DNA of 64,000 nt from a bacterium (GTDB lineage: Bacteria; Patescibacteriota; Patescibacteriia; UBA1558; S5-K13), in NCBI GenBank assembly GCA_035356975.1, contig DAORGW010000001.1, forward strand, positions 4,951-68,950. The letters are read 5' to 3'. Position 1 is the stretch's first letter; each line of letters begins with the position of its first letter. The notes beneath the pieces were generated by a model. It saw only the letters and a list, made by a program, of their open reading frames with translations, did not search any database and was not told the origin of the DNA. The position numbers and the translations under genes are program-made. Positions 3,316-31,634 of the stretch are shown here, one piece after another.

Positions 3316-4785
3316 TTATTTCAATTTGTCTCTAAGAATTTTTTCTATAATTTCAGGATTTGCACGACCACCCGTTTCTTTCATCGCAACCCCCACAAAA
3401 TATTTCATTAGATTTTCTTTTCCAGATTTATATTCATTTACCTGAATAGTATTTTCATTAATAATTTTTTGAGCTAATTTTTTAAGTTCATTTTCATTAT
3501 TAATTTGAGTAAAATTATTTTCTTTTATTATATTTTCTGGGTCAGTTCCTGTGTCAAACATTATTTTTAAAACTCTCTGAGCATTTGAACTGTTTATTGT
3601 ATTTTTATAAATTTCAAATATAAATTTAGAAAAATCATTGGGGCTAATTTTTATATTTTCTATGCTAGTGTTTTCTTTGTTTATTAATTTGAATAATTCA
3701 GAAGTAATCCACCCAGTTATTAATTTTGTAATTTTAGATTTTTCTTTTTTGTAATCATTTTGTGAGATAAGTGTTTGAAATTCAGATACAGTATTTTCAA
3801 AAAATTCAGATATTTCTATGGTGTTAGATAAAATCTCTGCATCGTTTATGCTAATTTCAAATTCATTAATAAATCTTTTTATTTTTTCATCTGCAAGTTC
3901 TGGAATTTCAATTTGTAATTTATCAATTTTTTCATCTGAAATAAAAATTTCAGGAATATCTGGTTCGGGGAAATATCTATAATCATTTGATTCTTCTTTT
4001 TCACGTTGTAATTCTGTAATCTGTTTTGCGTCTATATATCCACGAGTAGTTTGTATTTCTGGTTTTTCATTTTTTTCCCATAATTCAGTTTGTCTTTTTA
4101 TCTCGTATTCAAGTGCTTTTTCTACTGATTTAAATGAATTTAAATTTTTAATTTCAGTTTTTGGATAAAGTTTTAGATCTCCATTTGGACGAAGTGAAAT
4201 ATTTACATCACATCGTAGGTTTCCTTTCTCCATGTCAGCATCTGAAATATTTAAATATCTGCAAATTTGGCGTAGTTTTTGTAGAAATAATTTCGCCTGC
4301 CCAGGTGATCTAAAGTCAGGACAAGTTACAATTTCAGCAAGTGGAGTTCCCGCTCTATTAAAATCAACAAGAGTTTCCCCATCTATGTGCATACTTTTTG
4401 CACTATCATTTTCTATGTGTAATCTCTCAATCCCAATTCTTATTTTTTTATCATTTTCTTCTATGATAAAAAATCCATTTTGCGACAGTGGATACTCAAA
4501 TTGAGAAATTTGATAACCATGTGGTAAATCTGGATAAAAATAATTTTTTCTTTCAAAAACACTTCTGTGATTTATTTTTAAATTTAGCGCAAGTGCTAAT
4601 TTTATGGCATAATTTATAACTTCTTCGTTTAAATCGGGTAGTGTTCCGGGGTGACCCAAACAAATTGGACACACAACGCTATTTGGTTTTGTGTCATCAG
4701 AAATATTAGAACAACTACAAAACATTTTACTTTTTGTCTTTAATTGTACATGAATTTCTAATCCTATAATTGGTTCAAGATTCAT
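3316..4785 (-). CDS. gatB: Asp/Glu-tRNA(Asn/Gln) amidotransferase subunit B
   Basis: N-terminus EPIIGLEIHVQLKTKSKMFCSC and overall GatB architecture. 489 aa. Confidence 0.9.
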   Translation of the reverse strand: MNLEPIIGLEIHVQLKTKSKMFCSCSNISDDTKPNSVVCPICLGHPGTLPDLNEEVINYAIKLALALNLKINHRSVFERKNYFYPDLPHGYQISQFEYPLSQNGFFIIEENDKKIRIGIERLHIENDSAKSMHIDGETLVDFNRAGTPLAEIVTCPDFRSPGQAKLFLQKLRQICRYLNISDADMEKGNLRCDVNISLRPNGDLKLYPKTEIKNLNSFKSVEKALEYEIKRQTELWEKNEKPEIQTTRGYIDAKQITELQREKEESNDYRYFPEPDIPEIFISDEKIDKLQIEIPELADEKIKRFINEFEISINDAEILSNTIEISEFFENTVSEFQTLISQNDYKKEKSKITKLITGWITSELFKLINKENTSIENIKISPNDFSKFIFEIYKNTINSSNAQRVLKIMFDTGTDPENIIKENNFTQINNENELKKLAQKIINENTIQVNEYKSGKENLMKYFVGVAMKETGGRANPEIIEKILRDKLK

Positions 4786-22696: not shown

Positions 22697-22790
22697 AATT
22701 TTGTCATTCTGAACTTGATTCAGAATCTCAAAATTGTTTTGTGTTCTGGATTCCGGATCAAGTCCGGAATGACAAAGAGCAAAAATTTCT
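22697..22790. repeat. MITE-like inverted-repeat element, copy A
   Basis: ttttgtcattctgaacttgattcagaatctcaaaattgttttgtgttctggattccggatcaagtccggaatgac. Two hairpins (ttctgaa/ttcagaa and ttccgga/tccggaa) and TGTCATT/AATGACA termini. Near-identical to the copy at 24279-24374. Confidence 0.6.
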
Positions 22791-24278: not shown

Positions 24279-24374
24279 CTTCAAACTATTTTGTCATTCT
24301 GAACTTGATTCAGAATCTCAAAATTGTTTTGTGTTCTGGATTCCGGATCAAGTCCGGAATGACGGGGTGCAAAA
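24279..24374. repeat. MITE-like inverted-repeat element, copy B
   Basis: Identical core to copy A over about 80 bp. The flanking gcaaaaattt is also shared. Confidence 0.6.
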
Positions 24375-30153: not shown

Positions 30154-30381
30154 TATTATTATAGCACAATATTTTGATTGAGAAAAATTACAAAATATAA
30201 AAAAATAGCCAATAATTGACCATTTTTTATTTTATTATTTGCCTTTTTGTTGTGTGCCAATGCGTGGAGTTTTTATTAATACTAATTGTTTTATTTAAAA
30301 TTGTATTTATTTATTACCTACTCAATCACACCTCCCTCTGTATAATCAGAAAACAATGACTCATCTAGATCATATACTAAC

Positions 30382-30678
30382 TTATTCCAAATTATTGTCA
30401 TAATCTCCTATAGGAAGCCAACCAGTTCCTGTTGTCATTGCTGTTTTGAATTCAGAAACACTAGAATATCCATCTGGAATTGTTAAGTCATAACTATTAT
30501 CATCATTGAAATCTAGATCTGTAACTAGTTCATAGTTGCCATTTAATGTACTTCTTACATTATATAGATCTTGAATACTACTTATTGTAGTTGTTGCTGC
30601 TTTTGTGGTATTTATACTTATTATAAAGAATAAAAATACAACACAAAAGAAGATTAAATATTTGTTTAGTTTATTCAT
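30382..30678 (-). pseudogene. Truncated N-terminal fragment of a large surface protein (signal peptide plus start of a repeat/GLUG-like region)
   Basis: Signal peptide, then ISSIQDLYNVRSTLNGNYELVTDLDFNDD, a motif that usually opens much larger adhesin-like proteins. The ORF stops after 98 aa. The +1 frame continues for about 20 more codons before stopping. Confidence 0.35.
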
Positions 30679-30720
30679 AAAAATTAATATTATTATTTAA
30701 TAATATTATTATAACATAAA

Positions 30721-30960
30721 TTACATGGGGGGGTAGATATTCCCCCAACCTCGCAGGTTGGCAACCTCGAAGGTTGAAAATATATAAATAATAAAAACCG
30801 GGCCATAAACCCAGTTTTTGCAATATCTGAAAGTCCAGTGTGGAAAGACTCCAAACATTAATTTTGGGTTGAGTTCTGAGATTAGCACCATGGTGCTAAA
30901 ACTACCCGAGCTCCCAACGTTGTAGATGTAAAGTTCCAAATTCTGAACCATCAGACAATT
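30721..30960. ncRNA. GC-rich structured non-coding region, class unassigned (candidate ncRNA or leader)
   Basis: Non-coding GC island in an AT-rich genome. Hairpins gggggg-tagatatt-ccccc, caacctcgcaggttg, caacctcgaaggttg and agcacc-atg-ggtgct. The 76-aa track ORF here looks spurious. Confidence 0.25.
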
Positions 30961-31040
30961 TAATTATATCATGAATGAAAATAATTAAAAAACGGGTTTC
31001 CTGCCCAGAAAACTCGTTTACTATTTTATCAAAGATAAAA

Positions 31041-31634
31041 TTAATCTAAAATTCCATCAAGATTTACATCGTAAAGAATTTTTTCATTTAAGTGTGTGTA
31101 TTTTATAATCTCATAATCTTTAAACCAAACATTTATTTCTCTTTGTGCTTCTTCTACTTCATCGGAGCAATGAACTAAGTTTCTTACACATCTTGCATCA
31201 ATATTCGCTAGCTCATATGAATCAATTGTATAATCACTTCTTATTGTTCCAACGTCTGATGTAAGTGGTTCTGTGCCACCAACTAGTTTTTTAACAATTC
31301 CAATAGATTTGTTTCCCTCGAAAACCATTACTAATATTGGCCCAGCTGTTATAAAAGAAACATTTCCTTCTAACATATCTTTACCATATTCTAATTCCGT
31401 TTTTTCAATTGGTAGATTTTTATTTTTTCTATTTTCTACTGTTTTAGTGCCAACTTTTAAAAACCAAGCTTCATCTTTATTATAATGGGCTAGTGCTTGT
31501 TCTCTTGTTGCTACTGTAAATTTTGCTGCAACCATTTTTAGACCAGTTTTTTCAATTCTAGATATTATTTCACCCATTAGACTTCTTTGTATTGAGTCCG
31601 GCTTTAGAATAACTAATGTTCTTTCGTTTTTCAT
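31041..31634 (-). CDS. ndk: Nucleoside diphosphate kinase with a 30-45 aa internal insertion
   Basis: ERTLVILKPD, GTIRSDY and NLVHCSD (active-site His) are conserved. An extra segment sits between the helix-hairpin and the Kpn loop. Confidence 0.75.
   Translation of the reverse strand: MKNERTLVILKPDSIQRSLMGEIISRIEKTGLKMVAAKFTVATREQALAHYNKDEAWFLKVGTKTVENRKNKNLPIEKTELEYGKDMLEGNVSFITAGPILVMVFEGNKSIGIVKKLVGGTEPLTSDVGTIRSDYTIDSYELANIDARCVRNLVHCSDEVEEAQREINVWFKDYEIIKYTHLNEKILYDVNLDGILD

Follow-up and report, generated by a model that had tools for sequence, protein, structure and literature searches.

What is encoded in the GC-rich, hairpin-dense DNA that lies downstream of ndk in a 64,000-nt stretch of a Patescibacteriota genome (hereafter the window)? 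The initial annotation, made from the sequence, marked about 240 bp here as a candidate structured RNA, which on the minus strand would lie after the ndk terminator and ahead of a truncated surface-protein gene and may be a long 5' leader. To answer the question, we compared the locus with related ndk loci, folded the conserved part, built covariance models and weighed the possible identities of the RNA.

A small-RNA gene predicted downstream of ndk

The GC content is 41.5% in 30793-30956 and 60% in 30727-30776, compared with 27.2% for the whole window and with 12% (30600-30720) and 24% (30957-31040) for the low-GC flanks. Just 1.1% of 164-nt windows match the GC content of 30793-30956. Additionally, the palindrome pattern CAACCTCGNAGGTTG is confined to the island, with 4 strand matches versus 0.03 expected by chance. 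The island and all of the hairpins named in the initial annotation exceed chance. The earlier description of a high-GC, hairpin-dense island is thus borne out by the GC values and by the four named hairpins, all of which are present in the sequence. The extent of about 240 bp is correct as regards the rise in GC but not as regards a single element: judged by the alignment of homologous loci, the island is made up of two separate elements, a conserved RNA gene (30793-30971, including the promoter) and a non-conserved hairpin cluster (30727-30776). The features of the locus are listed in Table 1.

Table 1. Features of the ndk-downstream region, in window coordinates
Feature	Position	Strand	Basis or remark
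Intrinsic terminator of ndk, AAACGAGUUUUCUGGGCAGGAAACCCGUUUUUU	30987..31019	-	Read directly; hairpin kept, with changes, in all homologues
Extended -10 box (putative promoter of the small RNA), TGATATAAT	30963..30971	-	6-nt spacer to the first conserved RNA base
Predicted small-RNA transcript, 164 nt, rod plus terminator	30793..30956	-	Conserved block in alignments
Closing arm, 5' strand, UGUCUGAUGGUUCAGAAUUUGGAACUUUA	30929..30957	-	Consensus fold
Central bubble, 5' side, CAUCUACAACG	30918..30928	-	Unpaired in consensus fold; nearly invariant
Apical arm, starts UUGGGAGCUC, ends GAACUCAACCCAA	30864..30917	-	Consensus fold
Hairpin AGCACC-at-GGTGCT	~30884-30897		Read directly in sequence
Central bubble, 3' side, AAUUAAUGUU	30854..30863	-	Consensus fold
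Closing arm, 3' strand, UGGAGUCUUUCCACACUGGACUUUCAGAUA	30824..30853	-	Consensus fold
Intrinsic terminator of the small RNA, AAAAACUGGGUUUAUGGCCCGGUUUUU	30793..30819	-	Terminator scan: 12 pairs, then T run
Hairpin cluster: G7/C5 hairpin and two tandem 15-bp palindromes, CAACCTnnnAGGTTG	30727..30776		Between small-RNA terminator and next promoter
Palindrome CAACCTCGAAGGTTG	30762-30776		Read directly in sequence
Palindrome CAACCTCGCAGGTTG	30746-30760		Read directly in sequence
Hairpin GGGGGGG-tagatatt-CCCCC	30727-30746		Read directly in sequence
Extended -10 box of inserted ORF, TGTTATAAT	30708..30716	-	TGATATAAT at the equivalent place in L002
Inserted 98-aa signal-peptide ORF	30382..30678	-	Only in the window and L002, between small RNA and pfkB

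The scan for ndk relatives returned 80 loci, of which L001, L002 and L005 alone share the intergenic DNA of the window. A further variant, L114, was added by contig look-up with ndk relatives, and L085, identical to L002, by a metagenome scan; in all, the small RNA is represented by five Patescibacteria variants. The covariance model of the window's RNA, R1, scores 181-198 bits on the window and on L001, L002, L005, L085 and L114-L117. When R1 was run on all 80 ndk loci, and without filters on the nearest 7, it found nothing beyond the five variants, and its weak matches in L003 and L010 fall over the gene of an RRM protein and the terminator of that gene. Similarly, an exact 19-mer scan of metagenome contigs gave one true match only, identical to L002, and viral-contig scans and phage BLAST gave no match. 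The contig look-ups also yielded RRM-type loci and loci of the family type described below (L118, L119, L122, L124 and L126). Many TPA MAG records with a clearly Patescibacteria-type ndk (L003, L005, L008, L009 and others) are titled 'uncultured Gammaproteobacteria', 'Bdellovibrionales' or 'Saccharibacteria', and the taxonomy assigned to them seems unreliable.

On the minus strand, the conserved block has a constant order: a TATAAT box, a 6-nt spacer, about 139 nearly invariant nucleotides and the terminator, which is invariant except for one C/U change that preserves pairing. The TATAAT hexamer occurs at a fixed distance in all five homologues, within TGATATAAT, TGGTATAAT, TGTTATAAT or AGTTATAAT, and the spacer around the box is not conserved. 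The putative promoter call rests on position and conservation because TGNTATAAT is not significantly enriched within the window (14 found versus 9.5 expected). A sigma-70-type extended -10 promoter at this site would drive a transcript of about 164 nt ending at the intrinsic terminator; the promoter box and the terminator together thus predict transcription of the RNA, whose 5' end, placed relative to the -10 box, is uncertain by about 2 nt.

The block is sharply bounded, and the spacers on either side are unconserved and cannot be aligned. Within it, the five variants are 87-96% identical, compared with 65-83% at the third codon positions of ndk and 79-93% over ndk as a whole. The identity above that of the third codon positions, together with the unalignable spacers, indicates that selection acts on the RNA. 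The initial annotation had seen no credible ORF here, and we agree: the five homologous copies differ by 1- and 2-nt indels inside the 76-aa ORF. The ORF was ruled out as a coding sequence because these indels break the frame between variants, and the small RNA at 30793-30956 accordingly reads as non-coding.

Known families gave no identity for the RNA. With Rfam 15, searched on both strands at E<=10 with lax filters, there was no credible match on the island (30300-31400; 30785-30965), and the hits that were listed, rli52, STnc260 and TD-2, were due to chance or driven by terminator hairpins. At gathering level, the whole window gave two tRNAs only. The copy in L002 had no 6S match at E<=10, and ARAGORN found no tmRNA in the region. 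The initial annotation had proposed such a scan of both strands and had counted the lack of an Rfam match against a structured RNA; we nevertheless hold the RNA to be real, because it is conserved and forms a discrete unit from promoter to terminator. Taken together, the minus-strand segment 30971->30793 is, with a probability of about 0.9, a real, stand-alone and previously unannotated small-RNA gene, and the proposal that a structured non-coding RNA follows the ndk terminator on the minus strand, ahead of the next gene, is upheld.

Predicted fold of the RNA

In the consensus fold of the five sequences, about 139 nt form a single imperfect rod that is opened by a large internal bubble and followed by the terminator. 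The closing arm has about 29 nt per strand, the apical arm about 54 nt, and the bubble measures about 11 x 10 nt. The apical arm is capped by an AGCACC-AU-GGUGCU hairpin, and a GGG/CCC clamp (UUGGGAGC…CAACCCAA) bounds the bubble on the apical side. In the consensus rod, 97.9% of the cells are paired, versus 29-50% with partners slid.

The initial annotation had also suggested folding the region and looking for covariation among homologues. The minus-strand fold of 30715-30965 has a z of -4.15, with 1 of 200 shuffles equally good, and the plus-strand fold is weaker than that of the minus strand (z = -2.57). Because the variants are so similar, compensatory changes occur in the capping apical hairpin only; they involve 3 pairs and 5 cells, a level that 9-18 of 500 shuffles attain. 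Elsewhere, the rod stems show a few G-U to A-U changes; in the 5' strand of the closing arm, these changes preserve pairing, and there are no double changes. The modelled rod is thus plausible and consistent with the alignment, while covariation proves the apical hairpin only.

The consensus fold leaves 11-13 nt unpaired on the 5' side of the bubble and 10-11 nt on the 3' side. Single-sequence minimum-energy folds pair part of these nucleotides, the sequence of which is invariant; across the variants, the unpaired regions are as invariant as the stems. Moreover, an alternative hairpin, CCAAA/UUUGG, can arise between the 3' side of the bubble and the first nucleotides of the closing arm's 3' strand; it is formed when the 5' strand is masked. 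In L002, two changes extend this hairpin to CCCAAAA/UUUUGGG.

The ndk-linked rod RNAs and the relation to 6S RNA

Loci with 71-78% ndk identity (L004, L006, L118, L119, L122, L124 and L126) carry a different RNA gene directly after ndk. Its layout is that of the window's gene, with a TGCTATAAT or TGTTATAAT box followed by a rod of 138 nt and then a terminator. Models built from the near loci found distant members after ndk in L056, L015, L031, L051, L077, L080, L071, L064 and L075. The resulting family comprises 15 loci (L004, L006, L015, L031, L051, L056, L064, L071, L075, L077, L080, L118, L122, L124 and L126) with 13 distinct RNA sequences. The rods are 127-167 nt long and lie on the same strand as ndk and directly after it, and each member has its own -10 box a few nucleotides before the RNA and its own terminator.

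The family is described by the covariance model R3, which was based on the model-based alignment A8 (MAFFT misaligned the arms). The 15-sequence alignment contains 40 pairs with 96% of the cells paired, and double changes are found in 32 of the 40 pairs versus 9-14 in slid controls, a value reached by 0 of 500 shuffles. A proposed helix inside the bubble was poorly supported, with 71% of cells paired. In the family, the central bubble stays open between GGGAG… on one side and …(C)ACCCACCU on the other, and the core of the Rfam 6S consensus, GGGAG…CCCACCU around the bubble, is present in it. Two divergent members, L118 and L056, each match positions 41-146 of the Rfam 6S model below threshold, at 18.3 bits and E = 0.07, L064 has no match, and none of the 11 family loci searched with Rfam 15 at gathering level reaches the 6S score. 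In many members, a small hairpin on the 3' side of the bubble competes with the top of the closing arm; a 3'-bubble hairpin competing with the closing arm has been described for 6S RNAs (PMC8876501). The ndk-linked family is probably an unannotated 6S RNA of these Patescibacteria. It has no Rfam 15 annotation, and we found no publication on it and no description of a 6S RNA in the Candidate Phyla Radiation in the literature.

The surroundings of ndk vary among these relatives. Both L124 (68-1497) and L118 (1319-2497) have a reverse transcriptase gene (RVT_1) immediately before ndk, and in L124 a bAvd-family gene stands beside it, a gene pair typical of a diversity-generating retroelement. In the RRM-type sister loci (L003, L010, L120, L121 and L125), the slot after ndk holds a gene for a small RRM_1 RNA-binding protein, and the 5' region of this gene is long and looks structured. 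Because these loci have no RNA gene there, the slot is not fixed.

We tentatively read the RNA of the window as a divergent 6S-like regulator of RNA polymerase, an identification to which we give a little less than an even chance. The RNA would then be a strongly diverged version of the 6S-like RNA that relatives carry in the slot after ndk. Its slot, its strand and its own -10 box and terminator match the layout of the ndk-linked family, and it resembles the family in size, in the rod-with-bubble geometry and in the GGGAG/CCC flank of the bubble. In the ndk tree, the clade of the window is sister to the L118-type members and is nested among other carriers of the family; therefore, an ndk-linked RNA of this kind is probably ancestral. 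In contrast, the window's RNA lacks the conserved UUGCGGACACCCACCU block and the small hairpin that many family members have on the 3' side of the bubble; its closing arm is longer and its bubble shorter. With filters off, the RNA region was not among the matches of R3 to the whole window at E<=10, and on the 196-nt RNA region alone the best local fragments of R3 scored 4 bits or less. Homology to the ndk-linked family is not demonstrated, because R3 gives no match.

Compared with 6S RNA itself (SsrS; RF00013), the RNA of the window is likewise a stand-alone gene for an abundant-type small RNA, and likewise a rod of closing and apical arms that are both interrupted by small loops; in the consensus fold, less fully in single-sequence folds, it also leaves a large central bubble open. 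The 6S consensus reads 'GGGagccc…CCCACCU', and the window's RNA has a GGGAGC…CCC clamp on the apical side of the bubble. However, CCCACCU is absent: the RNA reads CCCAAAAU, with AAAU in place of ACCU after CCC. Furthermore, its rod is 139 nt long, whereas 6S rods are about 180-200 nt; its bubble, at about 11 x 10 nt, is smaller; and it keeps the intrinsic terminator as a 3' hairpin. The Rfam model RF00013, with a gathering threshold of 46.4 bits, gave no match to it at E<=10. The short rod is not disqualifying, because 6S RNA truncated to the bubble and short arms still runs the 6S cycle in vitro (PMC8876501). In the model fold, the alternative CCAAA/UUUGG hairpin appears to resemble the release hairpin of E. 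coli-type 6S RNA (PMC8876501).

If the RNA works like 6S, the open bubble would let the rod mimic an open promoter and occupy the housekeeping RNA polymerase holoenzyme. The 5' strand of the bubble and the adjoining strand of the closing arm would template a short product RNA, and the freed 3' strand (UUUGG…) would pair with the 3' side of the bubble and CCC (…CCAAA), releasing the RNA. Binding of RNA polymerase, synthesis of the product RNA and orthology with the ndk-linked family are what we infer under this identification. A partial precedent is Ms1 of Actinobacteria, likewise a 6S-like rod missed by sequence models, recognised mainly by synteny and shape in the outline that PMC9130861 gives of it. 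Ms1, however, is about 300 nt long, binds core RNA polymerase, occurs in Actinobacteria only and has no sequence relationship to the window's RNA. Genomes with the window-type RNA could also carry a canonical 6S RNA elsewhere.

It is quite possible, though short of probable, that the RNA is instead a lineage-specific structured small RNA unrelated to 6S, either a trans-acting regulator or the partner of another protein, which sits in the slot after ndk or replaced an earlier RNA there. The lack of statistical similarity to the Rfam 6S and R3 models fits this explanation, as do a very narrow distribution of five sequence variants and a slot that RRM-type sisters leave without an RNA. The unpaired regions, invariant like the stems, would fit specific contacts, and the invariant loops GAAUU, CAUCUAYAAC, GUAGUUUU and UCUCAGAACUCAA would then be protein- or RNA-binding sites. 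Against an unrelated RNA, the nearest relatives have ndk-linked RNAs of the same position, strand, promoter and terminator layout, size and rod-with-bubble shape, both kinds carry the GGGAG/CCC clamp beside the bubble, and no candidate partner gene is linked to the RNA across the loci.

For the Patescibacteria at large, one scenario, quite possible though short of probable, is that Paceibacteria-type lineages have an ndk-linked 6S-like gene missed by Rfam, which in one subclade has diverged beyond recognition or been replaced in its slot by a new class of structured small RNA. If it was replaced, the RNA of the window would be the founding member of an RNA family specific to ultra-small bacteria with reduced genomes. 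If the ndk-linked rods are the 6S RNA of the Candidate Phyla Radiation, they would make global transcription control more accessible in these host-dependent, genome-reduced bacteria. Should the window's RNA be 6S, it would illustrate the extent to which a 6S RNA can drift, with a 139-nt rod and no CCCACCU but the shape retained; should it not be, it would represent a strongly constrained new class of small RNA. Either way, the two covariance models, R1 and R3, could serve to annotate these genomes.

Downstream DNA and readings other than a free-standing RNA

The gene on the 3' side of the small-RNA terminator differs between loci: it is pfkB in L001, L005 and L114, while the window and L002 have an inserted small ORF there. 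This variation bears on the proposal of a long 5' leader, by which the minus-strand RNA would be a cis-regulatory leader or riboswitch whose terminator serves as the expression platform for the surface-protein ORF or for pfkB. The order of promoter, structured domain of about 135 nt, terminator and gene is indeed laid out like a transcription-attenuation riboswitch. However, a separate TGnTATAAT box precedes every downstream gene on the far side of the terminator, the constitutively strong terminator of 12 pairs shows no evident conserved anti-terminator alternative, the rod shape is atypical of aptamers, and no Rfam riboswitch matched. Cis-regulation is distinctly improbable, because the downstream gene varies and has its own promoter box. 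The leader of the initial annotation is thus replaced by a unit with its own conserved TATAAT box and perfect terminator, and the TGTTATAAT promoter of the next gene lies downstream of it.

Even less likely is a non-functional stretch, in which the decayed remains of a gene, or of GC-rich foreign DNA, would fold by coincidence. The 76-aa ORF does overlap the RNA, and the GC content departs from the genome average; however, conservation exceeds that of the synonymous sites of ndk, a neighbouring essential gene, indels break the overlapping ORF, the changes in the stems are compensatory or G-U to A-U, and the promoter box and the terminator are both conserved. A plus-strand relic of RNase P RNA or of a TPP riboswitch, resemblances to which the initial annotation had pointed out in the strings GAAAGUCCAG, CAGAAAACUCGUUUAC and CUGAGA…ACCC…UGAACC, can be dismissed: neither family scores in Rfam at E<=10, the two 'P4' strings are not complementary (AAGUCCAG would need CUGGCUU), CAGAAAACUCGUUUAC belongs to the ndk terminator (31019->30987, minus), of whose hairpin it forms an arm, the plus strand is the wrong one given that the promoter and terminator assign transcription to the minus strand, and no plus-strand gene lies downstream.

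The hairpin cluster has a history separate from that of the RNA. Three of the four hairpins on which the earlier structural claim drew, the G/C hairpin and the two palindromes, are missing in L001, L005 and L114, where the whole cluster is absent. L002 has three related palindromes (~3896-3945) together with the same inserted ORF as the window. The palindromes, of the form CAACCT(nnn)AGGTTG, number two in the window and three in L002, and the G7/C5 hairpin is found in the window. They lie at about -15 to -75 upstream of the TGTTATAAT/TGATATAAT box of the inserted ORF and are present only with that ORF. Because the cluster is absent without the ORF, it was assigned to the insertion; going by this co-occurrence, it belongs to the inserted small ORF and lies outside the RNA. 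The palindromes may act as operators to which a dimeric DNA-binding protein binds, or as additional insulators of transcription. The 98-aa product of the ORF has an N-terminal signal-peptide-like segment and no Pfam match, and the ORF is followed by about 230 nt with no ORF (30154-30381); the region looks like an insertion or a truncated surface-protein gene.

Another hairpin-forming stretch of the window, about 73 nt long, occurs twice on the plus strand, at 22701-22773 and 24291-24363, with the copies 1590 bp apart. Compared outside the 11 central nucleotides, the two copies have the same arms, and they have an equal R3 score, which is at chance level. The two copies may stem from a repeat element or from duplication of a gene end.
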